Positions 15,090 through 55,915 are shown, numbered from the stretch's first letter. The stretch is DNA of 55,915 bases from Candidatus Hydrogenedentota bacterium (GCA_033813475.1 JAPXRP010000002.1:1-55915); one strand, 5' to 3'. Notes: generated by a model from the letters alone, not told the origin. Translations and numbers: made by a program.

Positions 15090-16785
15090 GCGCTGCCTCC
15101 TCCTGTCCGCCGCGCGCGGGCGCCAGTCCGGCCACCTCAAACACCGCCCCGCCGTCGTTCGGCAGGCACGCCACGCGCCAGTGGTGGGCGAGGGCGATCT
15201 GGCGCACGATGGCCAGGCCGAGGCCCGTGCCCTGCTCCGACGCGGTGAAGTAGGGGCGGAACACCTCCTCGCGGTGGGCGTCGGGCACGCCGGGCCCGGT
15301 GTCGCGCACCTGCACGCGCGCGCCGCGGCCGTCGGGCAGCACCCGCACGGTCACGCGGCCGCCGGGGGGCACGGCCTGCACCGCGTTCAGCACCAGGTTG
15401 AACAGCACCTGGCGCAGCATGTTTTCGTCGGCGGACACCCGGGTCTCCGGCCCCTCCAGCGAGAGGGTGACAGCCTTCTCCTCGCGGTCGCAGGCGAGCA
15501 CCTCGAAGAGGCCGCGCACGAGGGCGGACAGGTCCACGTCGCGCGGGGCCGGCTGCACGGGCCGGGCGTAGTCCAGGAACTGGTTGATGCGGCCCGTGAC
15601 GCGGTCGGCCTCCTCGGTGATCTTGACCGCCGTGCGCCGGGTGCCCGAGGGCACCTCCGGATCGCGGCCGATCATCTGGGCGAGGCCGCGGATCAGGTTG
15701 AGCGGGTTCTTGGTCTCGTGGACCAGCCCCGCCGCCGTCACGCTGAGGTCCTTGAGGTGGCTCTCCGTCTCGCGGCTGCGCACCAGGGCGATCTCCAGCT
15801 CCGCCGAGCGCGCCGCCGCGAGCCACGCCCACGCCAGGGCCGCGCAGGCCAGCGCCGTCACGGCCAGCACGATGCCGCGCAGGCGCAGGTCGCGCGTCAC
15901 CTCGGCGCGGACGGAGTCCGTGGGCACGCCCACGAGGAACCACATGACCCCGCGCTCGCGGGCGAGGCGGTCGTACTCCTTGCGGCCCATCCAGGGGGGC
16001 TGGTCCGGCGGCGGCCCCGGCTTCGGCATGGGCGCCGCCGCAATGAGCAGCGTGTCGCGCAGGGCCTCGCGGTCAAAAACGCGGCCCGTAAGGGTGCGGC
16101 GCAGGGTTTCCGCGCGGTGGTCGTTGAGGATGCCCGGTTGGAAAAGCGCCAGCAGCGCCTCCACCTGCTCCGCCGTCAGCGGCGCACCGTCCAGCCTGTC
16201 CAGCAGCGCACGCCGGCCCGCCTGGTCCAGCACGGGGTCCAGAAAGGGCGAGTTCAGGAAATGTTCAATGTTTCCCCCGGGTTCGGGGCCCGGTGGGTGG
16301 CCCGGCGGAGAACCCGGTGGAGGGCCGTGGAACGGCGGCCGGCCGCCAGGCCCCGGCATGCCGCCCTCCTCCATGGGAAGGATGCCCGGAAGCCCCTCCA
16401 CCCCCGCGCCCAGGGCGACCAGGTGCGTGAAGAAGGCCCGGTCCCGCGACCAGTGCTCGCGGGTGCGCAGGAGCCCGCTGAAGTCTCCGGGGACGGGCGC
16501 GCCCGCCGACGCCACCACGTCGCCCGACGCGCTGAGCAGCGCCACGGAGTCCAGCTCGGCCTCGCGCACCAGCTCGCCCAGCGCCTCCTCCAGCCGCGCC
16601 CGCGGCACGATGGCCAGCCGCCCCTGCGACCGGACCACCACGCTCATGGCCGCCGCCAGGTCGCGCGCGCGGTTGGTCAGCAGCCGCCGCGCGGACTGCT
16701 CCGCGCGCCGGTGCTCCAGCGCCTGCCACCCCGCCACCGGAAGCAGCACCAGCAGCAGCAGCGCGACGAATCCTGTTTTCCTCAT
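15082..16785 (-). CDS. Sensor histidine kinase with a large periplasmic region
   Basis: H-box [14 protein letters not shown]. HATPase motifs [16 protein letters not shown] and GTGLGLAIV. Two TM helices flank a ~300-aa periplasmic part that contains a Pro/Gly-rich stretch. Confidence 0.9.
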
Positions 16786-45469: not shown

Positions 45470-46660
45470 ATGGGAAAACACGCGGATTCGATGGGGTGGT
45501 CGCTTCAACTGAGGAGCAAAACTTACTTCGTATACCACCGGTACCACCCACAAGGCAAGCTGGTCGGAAAGACCACCGGGGAGCAGGACAAGGAAAAAGC
45601 CATCGTGAAGGCTCTTGAGATTGTCAAAGAAGCAAGGGCCGAACTGGGTGTTGTGACAGATAACTACTACGTCGCTTATCTTGATGCTGTTGATAGGCGG
45701 AAGAAAGAGGAAGAGCTTCTGCTGGGCAATGAGCTGGACAAGATCAACCCCCGTCTTACCACCCTCTGGAGGCTGGGAGACACCTACCTGCTGGACACGG
45801 GCTGGTTCGTGGACTGGCTCAGAGAGAATAAGCCCTTTTCCGTGCTGTGCAGTTACCGGACCGTCTGGAAGATGTTCGTTGAACAAAACCCCCAATTGGT
45901 CCGGATCAATGAAGTCCGGCCAGAGCACATCCAGAAGGTCTACGATCTCAAGCGGGGCGAAGTCACCCACACCACGATGGTTACGAGCTATTCGTCCTGG
46001 CTCAGGGGTATCTTCAAGCACCTGATCCGGTTGGAATGGTACCACGGGGAAAACCCAGCACCAACCCTCTCCCTTCAGCACAATTTGATCGCACCCAAAG
46101 AACGGCCAAACATCTTGTCGGAGAAGGAATTGGTTCAGTTGCAGGCCGTGTTCGATGAGTTCGGGAACGGGTTCGATCTGGCGTTCACCCTGATGAGGCA
46201 CACCGGGATGCGAAAGGCAGAGGCCGTCAATCTCCTTTGGGAGGAGGTTCATTTGGATGCTAAACCTCACCCGTATCTCCAAATCCAACCGCACGCTGAG
46301 GACAAGGCCCGTGGGGTTGTCAAAAGTACGATCAAGACCCGTAACAGTGTCCGGCTCGTCCCCATCCGACAGGACCTTTTGGACTGCCTGAAGAAGCATC
46401 GCAAGGAATCCGGATACGTGGTTCCCATGGAGAAGTACCGCTGGCTCAGGCATAACTTCATGTTGCCCACCTCTCTGCGAACCAAAATGAAGGCCGCGAA
46501 CCCGAGGTTTCACTTTCACCTGCTCCGCCACACCTTCATCTCCAACGCGTTGATGGCAGGAGTCCCGCCGGTAAAGGTTTCCAAGTGGGTTGGGGATTCC
46601 CTCGGGATGATCCTCAGCACCTACACGCATTGCATCCCCGACTCCGACATCAATTTCTAG
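45470..46660 (+). CDS. Tyrosine-type site-specific recombinase/integrase
   Basis: Catalytic-domain pattern: RHTGMRKAEAVNLLWEEV (Arg I), HLLRHTFISN (His-x-x-Arg) and ...LSTYTHC (Tyr). GC is about 60%. It marks the left edge of the low-GC island. Confidence 0.85.
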   Translation: MGKHADSMGWSLQLRSKTYFVYHRYHPQGKLVGKTTGEQDKEKAIVKALEIVKEARAELGVVTDNYYVAYLDAVDRRKKEEELLLGNELDKINPRLTTLWRLGDTYLLDTGWFVDWLRENKPFSVLCSYRTVWKMFVEQNPQLVRINEVRPEHIQKVYDLKRGEVTHTTMVTSYSSWLRGIFKHLIRLEWYHGENPAPTLSLQHNLIAPKERPNILSEKELVQLQAVFDEFGNGFDLAFTLMRHTGMRKAEAVNLLWEEVHLDAKPHPYLQIQPHAEDKARGVVKSTIKTRNSVRLVPIRQDLLDCLKKHRKESGYVVPMEKYRWLRHNFMLPTSLRTKMKAANPRFHFHLLRHTFISNALMAGVPPVKVSKWVGDSLGMILSTYTHCIPDSDINF

Positions 46661-46970
46661 CCGGCGTCGTCCGGCCATATCTGGCTGTGGCCCCCGAGTG
46701 CCAGCTGTCCTCAAGGCGTCTGTGCGGCTCAGGAGGCCTTTCCCTCGCTGGCATCCGTTAGTTGTACCCTACCGGTGACGGCGTGGCCTGTTGGCCGTCT
46801 GTCAGGCTTTCAGCTGTGCCAGGCTTTGGGGCGTCGGGCTGGGGTTTCGACACGTGACGAAACGACTAGCGCACGGATACGCCGTGCCTGCAACCTGATC
46901 CATGCAGTCAGTCCAGAGACGTCCCCTTGGGCATGCAACGTCGCATGGTCCGTATTTTCAGGGCCCTCAC

Positions 46971-47459
46971 TTATTGTGGTGGGCGGAGCTCCTTCGGGTT
47001 GATGCGGGCGAGAACCGGTTTCTTTGCCAATGTGTGCTCAACCCCACAGTACAATACGGAATCACCAACGCTCTCAAGCGCTTGTTTCCTGTCGATGAAG
47101 CCACACCATTCATCGCCCGGCGCAAGTGTCACCGGAAGGGGGGCGCTAGAATCGGGCTGACGGATAAAGAATCCCCCCCCTGCCGGTTTTCTAAGAAGAC
47201 GGTGTATTCGGCTCTTGAATGGATAGCCAACAAGGGTAGTTACTCTCGCTGGACGGCTTCCTATGTTCACAACTCGGATCTGAATGAGTTGTCTGGGATC
47301 AAGAGCTCTTGTGATGGGATGGATTGCCTGCATGTTGGGGTTCACCGAAACCTCCAGGCGGGGCCCATCCTTCTTCCACTTGATGACGTCCCAGACGATC
47401 GCCGCTGTTCCGGCGATGGCTCCCCACACTGCGATTGCCGTTGTTGCATCCACCTTCAC
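46971..47459 (-). CDS. Membrane-anchored hypothetical protein downstream of hsdR
   Basis: N-terminal TM helix TAIAVWGAIAGTAAIVWDVIKW, then a beta-rich ~130-aa domain (RLEVSVNPN...IQIRVVNIGSRPARV...VTLAPGDEW). The start lies 22 nt after the hsdR stop on the same strand. No family recognised. Confidence 0.55.
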   Translation of the reverse strand: MKVDATTAIAVWGAIAGTAAIVWDVIKWKKDGPRLEVSVNPNMQAIHPITRALDPRQLIQIRVVNIGSRPARVTTLVGYPFKSRIHRLLRKPAGGGFFIRQPDSSAPLPVTLAPGDEWCGFIDRKQALESVGDSVLYCGVEHTLAKKPVLARINPKELRPPQ

Positions 47460-51321: not shown

Positions 51322-52929
51322 TCATTGGCCGCCCTTCGAACGGCTTCCTGCATCTCCTTTGGGCTTAGATGAAGCTTTTTTACCTGCTTTGCCGGGTTGC
51401 TTGCCATCGGGGTCTCCTTTCAGGTGCGTTTTGAGAATAGTAACAACAACCGCCTCCCGTTGCAAATAGCTGGTGGGAAGCATGGGAATCCTTATGGTTC
51501 CCGCCTTCCGGTCCCAGGGCACCGTTGCGCCGGTGTCCTTGCTCTTCCGCGTCAAGGGGAATCCGGACCCCTGCCTCATGGAGAAAAGATCGAAGAACCG
51601 GCGGGGGCCGATCCCCACGAAAGGCTCGAAAGCCACCAGCCCGCCCTTCTTCTGGTCGCGCTGGAAGCCCGAAAAGGCCGCGTCGCCATGGAACTTCAAG
51701 GCCCTGCTCTTGGGATAGGGCTCAATGTAGACCACCCGCGTGATGCCGGCGGCGATGATATGTTTGGCGCAGTTGTGGCAGGGGAAGGTGGTCGAGTAGA
51801 GCGTCGCCCCCTTGCAGTTGATGCCGTTTCGGGCGCAGGTCATCAGCGCGTTCATCTCGGCATGGACAACGCGGCCGTACTCCGTGATGTCGTCTATGGG
51901 GCTGCGTTTCAGCGCTTCGCGGACCGCTTCCTCGTCGGGAATCCCGGCCGCCTGTCCGCACCCGGCGCAAACACGCCCTATCGCCGACACAATACGGTTG
52001 ACAATCTCCGCCTTTTCCGCGTCATTGCTGTCGCATTGTCGCTTATAGTCCCGGCCATTGGGGGTGTCTGTGACTTTTCCGGAAGCCGCTATCTGGGGCC
52101 AGTAGGTTCCTCCTCCCGCGCAGGGGCACTCGTTGACGCCGGTTGCAAGCACCTCATTGTCCCGGGCGATCACCGCGCCGATCTGCCGCGAGAGGTCCGC
52201 CGAGCGGGTGGCCGCGGCGAAGGCCATGAACATGGCGTACTCGTCGAACAGCGGGGTGCGGTAGGGGTCCGCGAAGACAACGTCAAAAAAGCGGGTCAGG
52301 GACTGCCGCGCCGTCCGGTCCAGGTGGATGAAGAAATCGCTGAGATGAAAGGTGTCCCGCGTCCGCTGTCCGCAGGGAACCCCCTCGGCCTCGTCCCGCT
52401 GCATCAGCGCCCGCGCCTCCGAGTCCTTCATGTCTTTAGTTTTGAGGAGGTTGGTGTGGCGCTGTTTGGGGTCCACATAGACCCCGACGAGGAAGAACCC
52501 GTTTCCATAGATGCGGCGCAGCAGGTTCACCTCGTCCGGATGCTTCAGGGAGTTGATCACAAAAGCGTGCCGGGGGCGCGGCGAGGAGTCGGTCCGGCCC
52601 CCGTATATCTGCGCCGCGGCGACCATGGCGAGAATCGCGCTGTCCCCGGATGTTTCCCGCGCCTCGTTCCCGAGCGTCATCATGGTGTCTATGCGCGTGT
52701 ATTCGCTCGCCCCCGCCAGGTCCGGAACCTCCACCACATGGGAAATCAGCTCCGAGAGCCGGATCACCACCGTGGTGTAGTCGTACCGCTCCAGACAGCT
52801 GCTGATCCGCGGAACAAGCGACCCCAAGTCCGCGCCCACTGAACCCACCAAGCCGATAACAAGCTCAGCACCTGGAAGCTGTCCGGACAGAATGCTCCTG
52901 TAATGTTCTTCACGGTCCGCGTTGTCCAT
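51322..52929 (-). CDS. Kinase-like N-terminal domain + CMP/dCMP-type zinc deaminase (anti-phage dCTP-deaminase architecture)
   Basis: C-terminal deaminase motifs VHAEMNAL and PCHNCAKHIIAAGI. N-terminus with a degenerate P-loop, LVIGLVGSVGADLGS. GGGAGG SD lies in the 14-nt gap after hsdS. Lys-rich C-terminal tail. Confidence 0.8.
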   Translation of the reverse strand: MDNADREEHYRSILSGQLPGAELVIGLVGSVGADLGSLVPRISSCLERYDYTTVVIRLSELISHVVEVPDLAGASEYTRIDTMMTLGNEARETSGDSAILAMVAAAQIYGGRTDSSPRPRHAFVINSLKHPDEVNLLRRIYGNGFFLVGVYVDPKQRHTNLLKTKDMKDSEARALMQRDEAEGVPCGQRTRDTFHLSDFFIHLDRTARQSLTRFFDVVFADPYRTPLFDEYAMFMAFAAATRSADLSRQIGAVIARDNEVLATGVNECPCAGGGTYWPQIAASGKVTDTPNGRDYKRQCDSNDAEKAEIVNRIVSAIGRVCAGCGQAAGIPDEEAVREALKRSPIDDITEYGRVVHAEMNALMTCARNGINCKGATLYSTTFPCHNCAKHIIAAGITRVVYIEPYPKSRALKFHGDAAFSGFQRDQKKGGLVAFEPFVGIGPRRFFDLFSMRQGSGFPLTRKSKDTGATVPWDRKAGTIRIPMLPTSYLQREAVVVTILKTHLKGDPDGKQPGKAGKKASSKPKGDAGSRSKGGQ

Positions 52930-52943
52930 CGGTGCGACCTCCC

Positions 52944-54242
52944 TTATTCTCCCTCATCATCCATGATTTCATCCGGCGGGGCAAATTCCTCCCCCTCGGG
53001 GGACGGGTCGGGCTCGGGAGACGCGGATTCCGCCGGCAGGGACGCCGCCGCCGCCCGCACGTCCAGCTTCCCCGTCACCACGTCAGACGTCAGGCGCGTC
53101 CGGTATTCGCGCAGAAGGGCGATCTCGTGTTCGAGGCGGGTGATGACCACCTCAAGTCCGTCTGTCTCTGCCTTGATGGCACCCACAATGACCTGCTGCT
53201 CTTCAAGGGGTGGAACCACGGTTGGGAAGTTCTGGAGCAACGGAAGTCGCAGCGAGTCCACGGTTGACTTTGCGGAGGAATCCAGCGCTTCAAATCGAAG
53301 CGTGGACTTGAGGTAGAAGAAGAAGAACTCTCCGGAGACTAGCCTGAAGTTGCTAAACTTATAGACACGCTGATGGTAGTCAAACTTGCCGTTTATGTAG
53401 TGGAACACCTTTGCGACGCCCGCCCCATCGCCTGCGGTCAACACCGCCTCGCCATCGAACGAATACGTGGAAATTCGCTCCACGGTCTGGGATCTGACGA
53501 AGAACGGGTACTGTGCATCATCAACTCGATTGACCGTGTCGCACCCACCCGTCTTGATATGAGCCAGGAACTTTGTTCGCCGAACCTCCCAATGTGCGGG
53601 GATGTCCCCTAGCCAGGGGATGCCGGAGGGTTTCAGGGGGGCGTTGGGGTCGAGGCCGCGGGTGACGGCGCGGTGGATGATGGCCTGTTTCTGCTCGTTG
53701 AGCAGGGTGATGATCTTCCGCTTCGCCCGGATCGCCCGCTCCAGCCGCCCGTTCGCCCAGTCCAGAAAACGCACGATCGCCGCCTGCTCCTCCGCCGGGG
53801 GAAGGGGTACGACCTGCTGATAAGCATCTTCCCGATCAAGACCCGGAACCGCTGAGTCCTTTGAAACGCCATCTAGCCTGATCCAGCCAAGCGTGTAGTA
53901 GAGCCAGCGGAGATCACTCCTTGTGAAACGGGCATCAATGAAGAAGGCTGTGTCAATGACAAATGAAGCACCCCTGCAAAAGTTCACCTTGCCGAACGAG
54001 CCTTTACGGCCAATAACGATGCACGGCGCCTGCGTATTGCTTGAGGAATGCCAACCAACTCTGCCATTCGAACCAAAAACTGGAACACTTCCTTGTATGC
54101 GACCAGTTCGAGGCAAAGCATCTCCATAGGCAAGTCGTGCAATCTGCTTGATGCGTCGCACCTCCCAATGCCCCGGCACCTGCCCCACCCACGGCAGCCC
54201 GGAGTCCTTGTATTCAGAGTATGGCTCGAGGTCGGCGATCAT
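52944..54242 (-). CDS. hsdS: Type I restriction enzyme specificity subunit
   Basis: Two target-recognition halves, each opening with P..WEVRR(I/T)K. Two conserved coiled-coil regions, LPPAEEQAAIVRFLD... and VPPLEEQQVIVGAIK...REYRTRLTSDVVTGKLDV. Unusual acidic, Pro-rich C-terminal tail. Confidence 0.9.
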   Translation of the reverse strand: MIADLEPYSEYKDSGLPWVGQVPGHWEVRRIKQIARLAYGDALPRTGRIQGSVPVFGSNGRVGWHSSSNTQAPCIVIGRKGSFGKVNFCRGASFVIDTAFFIDARFTRSDLRWLYYTLGWIRLDGVSKDSAVPGLDREDAYQQVVPLPPAEEQAAIVRFLDWANGRLERAIRAKRKIITLLNEQKQAIIHRAVTRGLDPNAPLKPSGIPWLGDIPAHWEVRRTKFLAHIKTGGCDTVNRVDDAQYPFFVRSQTVERISTYSFDGEAVLTAGDGAGVAKVFHYINGKFDYHQRVYKFSNFRLVSGEFFFFYLKSTLRFEALDSSAKSTVDSLRLPLLQNFPTVVPPLEEQQVIVGAIKAETDGLEVVITRLEHEIALLREYRTRLTSDVVTGKLDVRAAAASLPAESASPEPDPSPEGEEFAPPDEIMDDEGE

Positions 54243-55915
54243 GCCTGCCCCCCGTCGCCCATCTGGCGTTCGAGGGCCTGGCGGACGAGTCCCATGATGT
54301 AGTGCAGGTCATCGAGGGACTCGAAGCCGATTTGCACATCGCCGGTTCCCCAGTGCCCCCGGTCTGTCACATCGGTGCAGAGGCTCTTGGGGTCGTTGAT
54401 TTCGCTGAAGGGCAGGTTGAGGATGAGTTGGAGGAGTTTGGCCTGGGGGATGACGTCCACAAAGTTGGTCTCAGCCTTGTAGGCCACATAGGCCTTGAGG
54501 AACTCCTCGACCACGCAGGGGTCCAGGGCCAGCACCTCTTTCCGGAAGGCCTCGAAAAGGTTGCGCACGTTGGGGCCGTACATCTTGCTGCCCTTGGCGA
54601 GGAAAGGGTGGTCCTCGATGGTGTATCCGCCGGACGCGGGGGTTTTCTTGGGCTGATAGGCGGCGAGGGTGGCGGCGTCGAGGCTGGGCGCGGCCCACAC
54701 TTGGAGGGCAAGGTCGGCCAGCTGTCCGGCGCGGTTCTGGATGGCGGCCTCGTTCCACGCTTCCGCCTGTCTCAGGGCTTCATTGAGCCGGAGAGGGCTC
54801 TCCTTGAAGCCTCCCTTCATGTCGCGCTTTTCGGCAAAGGGCCGGTCGCTGTATTCGGCATTGTATCCCGTGAGGGTGAGGTTGCCGAGGGTGTGGAGCC
54901 ACTGCTGCTGGACGCGCTGCCAGTCATCACCCAGGGCCTGCCGCCACTCCGGGGAGAGGTCGGGATTCTGGGGCAGGATGTGCTCGATGGTGTACTCGTC
55001 CACCGCCACGCGCTCCTTGCGGTCGTGGTTCTCCATGCGGCGCAGCCAGTAGGTGCGGCTGCGGAAGTTGTAGAGGTCGCGGGTGTGCAGGTCGCGGCGG
55101 AACTCCTCGTCGCCGGGGAAGCGGCGGTAGGAGGGCAGGGACAGGAAATGCGCCTGGATGCTCTCGAGGTAGCGGTCTTTCTTCAGCGCCTTGCCGAAGG
55201 TGCCGAAGGTCTTGTTCATCGAGTTGGTGGGGATGGCGCAGATGGCGCGGCGGAACACATAGGCCTCCACCAGGCGCACGGCGGCGGCGAGGTCGGCGGC
55301 GGAGAGGGCGTTGTTGGCGTAGTCGTTGTACAGCTCCAGCAGGAAGGGGTAAGCCACGTCCACCTTCAGCTCGCGCAGGTCGTGGAAGGCGGCGGCGAGG
55401 GCGGGGTCTTTCTCCCGGCCCAGCGCCAGGGCGCAGAAATACCGGGCGAAGGCGCGGATGTCGCCCACCAGCGCCTCGATGCCCGCCTCCAGCACGGGCT
55501 TTGTGCGGGAGTAGTCCTTGAACGCCTCGTAGACCTCGCGCTCGCGCGGAATGTCGCCGGTGCGCACGGTCAGGTAATGGCGCATGAAGCTGTCGAACTG
55601 GGTACCGTAGGCCTCCTGGCCGAAGTCCTGCTCCATGGGCCGCCAGTAGTCCTCATAGAGGCGGGTTTGGAGGTCGGGCTCAAGCCCCATGAGGATGAAG
55701 TTGCGGATCAGGTCCGCCTGGCTCAACTCCTTGCCGGTGGAGTTCATGCTCTCGAAGATGAGCTGGGGGTTGTCCTGTTCCCGGCTGAGGGCGATGTCCA
55801 CCACCACCAGCTTTTCCAGGCCGCGCCACACCGGCACGAGGTCGCCCTTCCGCGCGGCGATGAGGTCGGTGAACAGGGAGAAGTTCTGCTTCACGCGCAG
55901 GGAGGCGTCCTGGGG
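54239..55915 (-). CDS. GmrSD-type DUF262/DUF1524 protein (5' end outside the window)
   Basis: The frame is open to the window edge. The DUF262 tail (IFESMNSTGKELSQADLIRNF) is followed by the DUF1524 His-Me finger region (YTIEHILPQNP...WLHTLGNLTLTGYNAEYSDRPF) and a ~130-aa C-terminal extension. The stop overlaps the hsdS ATG (ATGA). Confidence 0.85.
   Translation of the reverse strand, partial: PQDASLRVKQNFSLFTDLIAARKGDLVPVWRGLEKLVVVDIALSREQDNPQLIFESMNSTGKELSQADLIRNFILMGLEPDLQTRLYEDYWRPMEQDFGQEAYGTQFDSFMRHYLTVRTGDIPREREVYEAFKDYSRTKPVLEAGIEALVGDIRAFARYFCALALGREKDPALAAAFHDLRELKVDVAYPFLLELYNDYANNALSAADLAAAVRLVEAYVFRRAICAIPTNSMNKTFGTFGKALKKDRYLESIQAHFLSLPSYRRFPGDEEFRRDLHTRDLYNFRSRTYWLRRMENHDRKERVAVDEYTIEHILPQNPDLSPEWRQALGDDWQRVQQQWLHTLGNLTLTGYNAEYSDRPFAEKRDMKGGFKESPLRLNEALRQAEAWNEAAIQNRAGQLADLALQVWAAPSLDAATLAAYQPKKTPASGGYTIEDHPFLAKGSKMYGPNVRNLFEAFRKEVLALDPCVVEEFLKAYVAYKAETNFVDVIPQAKLLQLILNLPFSEINDPKSLCTDVTDRGHWGTGDVQIGFESLDDLHYIMGLVRQALERQMGDGGQA

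Follow-up and report, generated by a model that had tools for sequence, protein, structure and literature searches.

A probable defence island in Candidatus Hydrogenedentota: a type I restriction-modification locus carrying a GmrSD-like nuclease and a predicted anti-phage dCTP deaminase

Gene content of the locus

The stretch of DNA analysed here (the window) comprises 55,915 nucleotides (nt) of a Candidatus Hydrogenedentota genome (GCA_033813475.1 JAPXRP010000002.1:1-55915). Its right part carries, on the minus strand and in this order, genes for a GmrSD-like nuclease, the specificity subunit HsdS of a restriction-modification (RM) system of type I, a putative deoxycytidine triphosphate (dCTP) deaminase and the restriction subunit HsdR (Table 1). 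An earlier note, made from the sequence of the window, had described these genes as a tightly packed operon of complementary immune activities within an integrase-led island of low G+C content. The open reading frame (ORF) coordinates place all four genes on the minus strand, as the note had stated, and the stop of the GmrSD-like gene overlaps the hsdS start by 4 nt (ATGA). The 14-nt gap between hsdS and the deaminase gene (GGGAGGUCGCACCG) does contain the GGGAGG motif, 8 nt before the ATG. Tight packing holds for the GmrSD-hsdS and hsdS-deaminase junctions but not for the deaminase-hsdR junction, which has 834 nt of non-coding DNA; hsdR does follow the deaminase gene, although it lies outside the interval 51322-55915 that had been given for the operon. 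PADLOC searches, which the note had proposed, identified HsdS, HsdR, the GmrSD-like protein and a dCTPase.

By its profile matches, the 535-amino-acid (aa) protein encoded between hsdS and hsdR is a member of the anti-phage dCTP deaminase family (AvcD/DcdV), in its short form. It scored 443.6 bits on the NCBIfam model NF041025 (anti-phage dCTP deaminase; equivalog cut-off 400 bits) over profile positions 1-434 of 437, with further matches to the PADLOC dCTPase model PDLC02373 (E = 6.8e-163) and to Pfam dCMP_cyt_deam_1 (E = 1e-19). The NF041025 and PADLOC scores bear out the earlier assignment of the protein to the family of Tal et al. 2022. The note had held that its proposal would fall if profile searches placed the protein among housekeeping deoxycytidine monophosphate (dCMP) deaminases or in ComEB; the ComEB profile gave 72.6 bits, below its cut-off of 219, and this identity was rejected at the sequence level. 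An exact-sequence look-up of the deaminase returned no identical record, and the best homologue among the GTDB species representatives returned had 57% identity. Long-form relatives add an N-terminal domain of ~100 aa, and because the window deaminase is a short form, positions 1-152 of the PADLOC profile were left unmatched. The long-form domain is itself conserved, e.g. '...GEWIDLNENQKQF.H..G...NWYPSTGT..FQGK' (alignment columns 1-120: P0047, P0055, P0063, P0067, P0103).

The deaminase motifs HAEMNA and PCHNCAKH read in the translation as the note had quoted them, and HAEMNA (H356, E358) and PCHNC (C384, C387) form invariant alignment columns. The glycine-rich loop GLVGSVG of the N-terminal kinase-like domain is also conserved. 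The Walker-A-like motif here, GLVGSVGAD, lacks Lys and Ser/Thr; its GAD recurs in the closest homologues, whereas the family consensus has Thr (GLVGAVGT). An AlphaFold2 model of the protein, built on a 32-sequence alignment, had a predicted local distance difference test score (pLDDT) of 83 and a predicted template-modelling score of 0.79, with only residues 506-535, the Lys-rich tail, disordered; the block-mean pLDDT was mostly 84-96 across residues 21-240 of the N-terminal domain. Foldseek searches of the PDB matched the C-terminal half of the model to dCMP deaminases (5c2o, 1vq2, 2w4l, 7fh4), including the chlorovirus dCMP/dCTP enzyme, and the N-terminal half to the adenylate-kinase-related structures 3h0k and 3lw7 (template-modelling score 0.72-0.73 on the target) and to shikimate and gluconate kinases. 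Thus, in the predicted structure the N-terminus is kinase-like at the fold level, in keeping with the note.

The GmrSD-like protein matched Pfam GmrSD_C above its cut-off (2e-25) and DUF5655 (2.6e-11), and gave a partial match to GmrSD_N (30.6 bits against a cut-off of 33.2), of which only the last ~65 domain residues are inside the window. In PADLOC it matched 'Orf5' (6.7e-143, profile positions 146-542 of 543) and HEC-06 (7e-40). Its translation contains the nuclease motif IEHILPQN, which fits the (D/E)H-x-x-P pattern of the DUF1524 His-Me finger, and its closest solved structure is the distant DUF262 protein 9jfl (4e-10). Because the frame stays open as far as the window edge, with no stop upstream of 55894, and because the PADLOC match starts at profile position 146, we conclude from the sequence that ~145-150 N-terminal residues, including the DGQQR motif, fall outside the window. 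The GmrSD type proposed by the note therefore stands on the Pfam and PADLOC identities, with the qualification that the gene runs off the window and has its 5' end outside.

HsdS and HsdR were named correctly in the note, and Pfam and PADLOC agree on both. HsdS matched Pfam Methylase_S in two stretches (5.7e-18) and PADLOC Specificity_I over residues 5-399 (2.3e-87); it has two target-recognition domains and ends in an acidic tail of 36 aa (window 52944-53051). HsdR contains the Pfam domains HSDR_N, SWI2_SNF2, ResIII and a T1R_D3-like domain, matched PADLOC REase_I (E = 1.4e-46), and shows FELK and DEAH motifs in its translation. Its score on TIGR00348 was 200 bits, below the cut-off of 284, and it therefore appears to represent a divergent subfamily.

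The nearest relative of the locus, L001, comes from a Candidatus Hydrogenedentes metagenome-assembled genome and encodes a deaminase 92% identical to that of the window. Its gene order is hsdM (785 aa)-Abi_2-GmrSD (700 aa)-hsdS-deaminase-840 nt-hsdR; its HsdM has HsdM_N and N6_Mtase domains, and its GmrSD-like orthologue has a full DUF262 domain with VIDGQQRL. Between L001 and the window, DNA identity is 97% for the region that extends from the hsdS 3' end to hsdR, hsdR included, and 90.6% for the GmrSD gene. Within this region hsdR has 98.5% nt identity, with 33 of its 46 differences at third codon positions, and the 834-nt spacer has 98.6%; the 14-nt hsdS-deaminase spacer is 100% identical in L001 and in another relative, L002. 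The target-recognition domains of hsdS differ from those of L001 and the conserved regions retain 91-94% nt identity, as expected for specificity swapping. Since L001 has both genes upstream of its GmrSD gene, hsdM very probably lies just beyond 55915, and an Abi_2 gene is probably found there as well. The expectation of the note that hsdM lies past 55915 is supported in this way by homology.

A further feature of the comparison with L001 concerns the deaminase itself. Codons 271-345 (window 51895-52119, minus strand), which form a 75-codon variable insert of the deaminase domain, contain 28 of the 42 amino-acid changes and 18 of the 31 synonymous changes that separate the two deaminase genes, and the flanking spacer and hsdR are ~98.5% identical. 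The insert looks like a recombination patch, i.e. a swappable module inside the enzyme.

Table 1. Features of the locus and of its left flank (window positions)
Feature	Position	Strand	Details or basis
GmrSD-like (DUF262/DUF1524) gene	54239 to beyond 55915	-	C-terminal DUF5655; 5' end cut by window
hsdS	54242-52944	-	432 aa; type I specificity subunit
hsdS-deaminase spacer	52930-52943	-	14 nt, with GGGAGG ribosome-binding site; direct sequence reading
deaminase gene	52929-51322	-	535 aa
non-coding spacer, deaminase-hsdR	51321-50488	-	834 nt; ORF, tRNA and Rfam scans
terminator-like hairpin	51232-51204	-	12 pairs, 8 G-C, then TTCTTCGTTT
hsdR	50487-47482	-	1001 aa; type I restriction subunit, nuclease and superfamily 2 translocase
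orphan ORF, directly 3' of hsdR	46971-47459	-	162 aa, hydrophobic N-terminus; translation
tyrosine integrase gene, left edge of lower-GC island	45470-46660	+	Pfam Phage_integrase E = 4.4e-11

The left edge of the island agrees with the earlier description, both in the Pfam integrase match and in base composition: the G+C content falls from ~0.70-0.75 to ~0.58-0.65 from ~45.4 kb, beside the tyrosine integrase gene. A tRNA search at this boundary, beside the integrase, found none. The 162-aa ORF after hsdR had no match in Pfam, PADLOC or NCBIfam, and tblastn found no match to it in related loci. Between the integrase stop and this ORF lies a 173-nt non-coding segment (window 46691-46862) that is 79% identical to L001 17785-17957, and a 39-nt part of it (window ~46761-46799) also matches the L001 hsdR end (15452-15490). 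The two L001 copies of the segment flank a 2.3-kb stretch with a PASTA-domain gene, which is an att-like pattern.

Recurrence of the arrangement in related loci

To place the locus among its relatives, we used two samples. The first contained the 80 best species-representative loci encoding a deaminase homologue. Fourteen of them had the co-directional order hsdM-(x)-hsdS-deaminase-(x)-hsdR, and in 66 the homologue lay outside such type I embedding. The 14 embedded loci span Verrucomicrobia, Planctomycetes, Nitrosomonas, Thauera, Enterobacteriaceae, Chlorobi, Psychrobacter and Desulfobulbaceae and have HsdR proteins of no fewer than two families, which are distantly related. A neighbour-joining tree placed the embedded deaminases at six or more separate positions among the solo ones. 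Other cargo in the deaminase-embedding loci comprised RhuM, DUF1016/YhcG, AAA_21 ATPases, MoxR with vWA, Bro-N, Fic-like, 23S-IVP and Macro genes.

The second sample contained 80 metagenomic loci with an HsdR of 70-80% identity to that of the window, and none of them encoded the deaminase. In about half of these same-family loci the hsdS-hsdR slot was empty, with hsdS and hsdR overlapping; otherwise it held DarT with Macro, Schlafen/AlbA_2, AAA_21 with DUF4276, PLD-like or SMC-like genes. A GmrSD-like gene preceded hsdS in seven loci, and six of the seven genes were close orthologues. Where the contigs extend far enough upstream, hsdM was seen in most of the loci. Judged from these gene orders, this type I family has hsdM-hsdS-hsdR, with the genes overlapping, as its basal layout and accepts cargo at two places, the hsdM-hsdS junction (slot A) and the hsdS-hsdR junction (slot B); the window represents one combination among many. 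In the window, slot A would hold the GmrSD-like nuclease and, by homology with L001, the Abi_2 gene beyond the window, and slot B would hold the AvcD/DcdV-family deaminase followed by the 834 nt of non-coding DNA.

Some neighbourhoods in related loci are of interest in themselves. DarT beside a Macro gene often fills the hsdS-hsdR slot in relatives (L101 5043-6772; L097 3291-4523). In L003 (2732-3205), hsdS and the deaminase gene are followed by a lone 157-aa Macro gene, and the deaminase may have displaced part of an earlier DarT/Macro cargo there. Solo relatives of the deaminase with 54-59% identity adjoin a GmrSD_N protein (L167 3830-7647) and an MmeI-like type IIG enzyme (L166 1127-7584), and the deaminase thus appears to be associated with restriction genes beyond type I.

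The arrangement is therefore less unusual than the note had implied, since hsdS-deaminase-hsdR recurs in many phyla and the embedding of defence genes in type I loci has been published. Payne et al. 2024 (10.1101/2024.01.29.577857) describe such embedding in type I RM loci, with PrrC and thousands of other genes, as 'guilt-by-embedding'. Deoxyguanosine triphosphatases (dGTPases) have been reported inside type I operons, and dCTP deaminases were said only to adjoin known defence systems (Tal et al., 10.1101/2021.04.26.441389). The text and supplements of Payne et al., as far as available, contain no statement of dCTP deaminases embedded in type I loci, and Tal et al. mention only dGTPases in this position. 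We regard a dCTP deaminase between hsdS and hsdR as a small extension of known facts.

Transcription units and control of the deaminase

The single operon proposed by the note is doubtful in view of what separates the deaminase gene from hsdR. A hairpin ~90 nt after the deaminase stop was by far the strongest of 10 terminator-like sites found in the region. Because 10 sites against 8.1 in shuffled sequences is a count not above chance, only the strength and the position of this hairpin argue for a terminator. On its 3' side, the 834-nt spacer has an AT-rich stretch with the palindrome CCATAGTCTATGG (~51060-51048) and then ~480 nt of GC-rich DNA up to the hsdR start. The spacer contained no credible ORF, no tRNA and no Rfam match at E<=1, and its folding z-scores were -0.75 and -1.8. 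When the spacer was compared by blastn and tblastx with 165 related loci, no homologue or gene relic was found except in the near-identical L001 and L002. A sigma-70 promoter scan of 9.3 kb gave one site, inside the GmrSD gene and no more than expected by chance, and none that was convincing in the spacer.

The 4-nt GmrSD-hsdS overlap and the 14-nt hsdS-deaminase spacer fit co-transcription and translational coupling. Since the hairpin and 834 nt of non-coding DNA precede hsdR, two transcription units appear likelier than one operon. The first unit would run from hsdM through the GmrSD-like gene and hsdS to the deaminase gene and end at the hairpin, and the second would consist of hsdR, expressed from within the spacer or by read-through. 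A separate hsdR unit is the classical type I arrangement, as in EcoKI.

This layout bears on the control of the deaminase. Characterized AvcD/DcdV enzymes are held inactive by an RNA of 152-174 nt (transcript ~300 nt), whose gene lies immediately 5' on the same strand and is transcribed together with that of the enzyme; when a phage shuts off transcription, the labile RNA is lost and the enzyme becomes active, and the AvcI RNAs of different species have no sequence similarity (10.1101/2021.03.31.437871; PMC10511110). Because of this lack of similarity, the absence of an AvcI RNA cannot be proved by sequence. The 14 nt between hsdS and the window deaminase gene leave no room for a 5' AvcI RNA. 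With the deaminase N-termini placed by profile coordinates, 38-85 nt separate the hsdS stop from the conserved deaminase core in the other embedded loci of the short form, so that any spacer has at most a few tens of nt. Among the long-form embedded deaminase genes, most abut hsdS directly, and the open frame extends upstream as far as the hsdS stop or beyond it. Four solo relatives, on the other hand, have 101-757 nt of upstream non-coding DNA. A structured RNA in the hsdS 3' region was not indicated by folding, which was no better than in shuffled sequences (z = +1.17).

A probable layered defence island and its alternatives

Taken together, the gene content, the island setting and the related loci make it likely that the locus is an integrase-associated defence island built on a type I RM locus that carries other defence genes. 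By homology, the M2S methyltransferase would mark the host DNA, and the R2M2S complex would cut incoming DNA that is unmethylated. The GmrSD-like protein, with a DUF262 nucleoside triphosphatase and a DUF1524 His-Me nuclease, would attack DNA that escapes through base modification. Upon infection, the deaminase would turn dCTP or dCMP into deoxyuridine nucleotides and starve phage replication, as described for this family (10.1101/2021.04.26.441389, 10.1101/2021.03.31.437871). The three activities would then be independent layers that are inherited together, and they probably form no single physical machine. As judged from the genes, to read them as complementary layers is reasonable.

Several points weigh against this interpretation. 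The function of every component is assigned by homology, and the nuclease is matched best by 'Orf5' and HEC-06 in PADLOC rather than by classical GmrSD; its preference for modified DNA is a prediction from homology only. As hsdM and the 5' end of the GmrSD-like gene lie outside the window, the completeness of the system is judged from a relative with 90-97% identity. The deaminase gene of embedded loci stands nearly always directly after hsdS, and the two could be functionally coupled. The proposed terminator and hsdR promoter are pattern-based, promoter rules may differ in this phylum, and read-through as a single operon is possible.

Among the alternatives, an identity of the 535-aa protein as a housekeeping dCMP deaminase or ComEB that just adjoins the restriction system is scarcely conceivable. 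The Pfam match, limited to the generic dCMP_cyt_deam_1, and the label 'deoxycytidylate deaminase' that some database sources give to homologues would be compatible with such an enzyme. However, the ComEB and anti-phage equivalog scores given above, the extra kinase-like domain, the position of the gene within a horizontally acquired island and the embedding of 14 of the 80 homologues in type I loci all speak for a defence protein. It is also very unlikely that the locus is a decaying remnant, with an inactive type I system and a spacer that is the wreck of a lost cargo gene. No hsdM is visible within the window, the slot B that in relatives is occupied by genes such as DarT/Macro contains 834 nt of non-coding DNA here, and in L003 a lone Macro gene follows the deaminase gene. 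On the other hand, the four visible genes are full-length with intact motifs, apart from the GmrSD-like 5' end cut by the window; the predominance of third-position differences between the hsdR genes of the window and L001 indicates purifying selection; the hsdM of L001 is intact; and tblastx of the spacer found no relic of a cargo gene. An integrated three-part machine, in which the deaminase is tethered to the type I complex by the acidic HsdS tail and its own basic tail, is very unlikely. The two tails read as quoted in the note, which had taken their opposite charges as a sign of physical coupling: the last 30 residues of HsdS have a net charge of -12, and the deaminase tail is Lys-rich. 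The position of the deaminase gene after hsdS and the precedent of PrrC, an anticodon nuclease that is physically restrained by the type I complex and so a cargo protein that binds its host enzyme, would also suit a tether. Comparison of the tails across relatives led us to reject this coupling. An acidic tail of at least 20 aa was present in 51 of 52 HsdS proteins of close type I relatives, none of whose loci has the deaminase, whereas in other type I families the HsdS proteins encoded beside deaminases stop just behind the conserved helix and have no such tail. The deaminase tails in embedded loci are mostly 15-25 aa long with a net charge of -5 to +2; L003 combines the same acidic HsdS tail with a deaminase tail of charge -3, and the window deaminase tail is predicted to be disordered (pLDDT ~30). 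By these comparisons the acidic tail is a trait of the type I family of the window, and the basic deaminase tail is not conserved. In this family (loci L087-L164) the acidic tail is 24-44 aa long and starts with 'REAAARLP(D/E)E'; DNA mimicry, auto-inhibition or HsdR contact are guesses at its role.

The remaining alternative concerns how the deaminase is silenced, and would add an RNA to the locus. We think it unlikely that an AvcI-like RNA antitoxin, which would restrain the deaminase until a phage halts host transcription, comes from the 834-nt spacer or from the 3' part of the hsdS mRNA. The characterized enzymes need a cognate 5' RNA, for which neither the window nor the other short-form embedded loci leave space, in contrast to the four solo relatives. 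The spacer has diverged from L001 by 1.4%, compared with 3.3% at the third codon positions of hsdR (p=0.014) and 9% at those of the deaminase gene. Mutations by which DcdV of V. cholerae loses its sensitivity to DifV include K511E and Q514R near the C-terminus, and the basic tail of the window deaminase could thus contact an RNA. However, the spacer had no Rfam match, neither the spacer strand (z = -0.75) nor the hsdS 3' region folded better than shuffled sequences, and the spacer has no homologue in other deaminase-bearing or HsdR-family loci; at this place the other embedded loci carry either protein genes or no spacer at all. Its lower divergence is a weak signal, drawn from a single near-identical comparison in a mosaic region, and the hsdS 3' tail is explained as a family-wide protein feature. 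A broader proposal, to which we likewise give a small chance, is that embedded AvcD-family deaminases have lost the 5' RNA-antitoxin gene and are restrained by an RNA of the host locus (hsdS 3' end or 834-nt spacer) or by an RNA-independent mechanism. If so, placement after hsdS would tie deaminase control to transcription of the methyltransferase operon, and host transcription shut-off would set off nucleotide depletion as a reserve for failed restriction. The variable insert of codons 271-345 could, on this proposal, be an exchangeable module for sensing or inhibitor binding.

We favour the island of independent layers. On this interpretation the locus would be a clean example of layered immunity in one mobile unit, which would restrict unmodified DNA, probably restrict modified DNA as well, and starve phages of nucleotides. 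The general picture of two exchangeable defence-gene slots in type I loci is already established, and the value of the locus lies mainly in its correct annotation. A modest new point is that hsdS-deaminase-hsdR occurs in about one sixth of the species representatives of the deaminase family, in many phyla and in every case with no room for AvcI. How type I-embedded AvcD-type deaminases are silenced when no AvcI gene lies upstream is a concrete, testable question.

The locus can be compared with several known systems. The deaminase resembles AvcD (DcdV) of AvcID (Tal et al. 2022; Hsueh et al. 2022) in its two-domain build of ~530 aa, its intact HAE and PCxxC motifs and its setting in a defence island. 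It differs in having hsdS 14 nt away in place of a separate 5' non-coding region for the AvcI RNA, in being a short form that lacks the ~100-aa N-terminal extension, and in its lineage-specific disordered Lys-rich tail. The GmrSD-like protein recalls TgvAB, RloF and BrxU, which are GmrSD-like enzymes within or attached to type I RM or BREX clusters (PMC11411939; Miller et al. 2005; Picton et al. 2021). TgvAB is a GmrSD-like pair embedded in a Vibrio cholerae type I cluster, for which the same rationale of modified plus unmodified DNA has been given (PMC11411939), and RloF of Campylobacter is another type I-embedded example cited in that paper. As in these systems, a DUF262/DUF1524 protein sits inside a type I cluster, co-directional with hsdS and translationally coupled to it, and the proposed role is alike: to deal with phages that escape the type I enzyme by their modified DNA. 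Unlike the two proteins of TgvAB, the window protein is a single polypeptide; compared with all three systems, it adds a C-terminal DUF5655 and matches PADLOC 'Orf5' and HEC-06 best, not the mREase_IV or SspE models. Like PrrC of EcoprrI and other cargo of 'guilt-by-embedding', the deaminase is a non-restriction effector between hsdS and hsdR that may act as a second line if restriction is evaded. An interaction with the type I complex comparable to that of PrrC is unsupported for the window deaminase, whose family lies mostly outside restriction loci. There is also a parallel with the anti-phage dGTPases in type I operons (Tal et al.): in both cases a nucleotide-depleting enzyme, here a predicted one, is found within a type I operon, although the enzyme family and the substrate differ.

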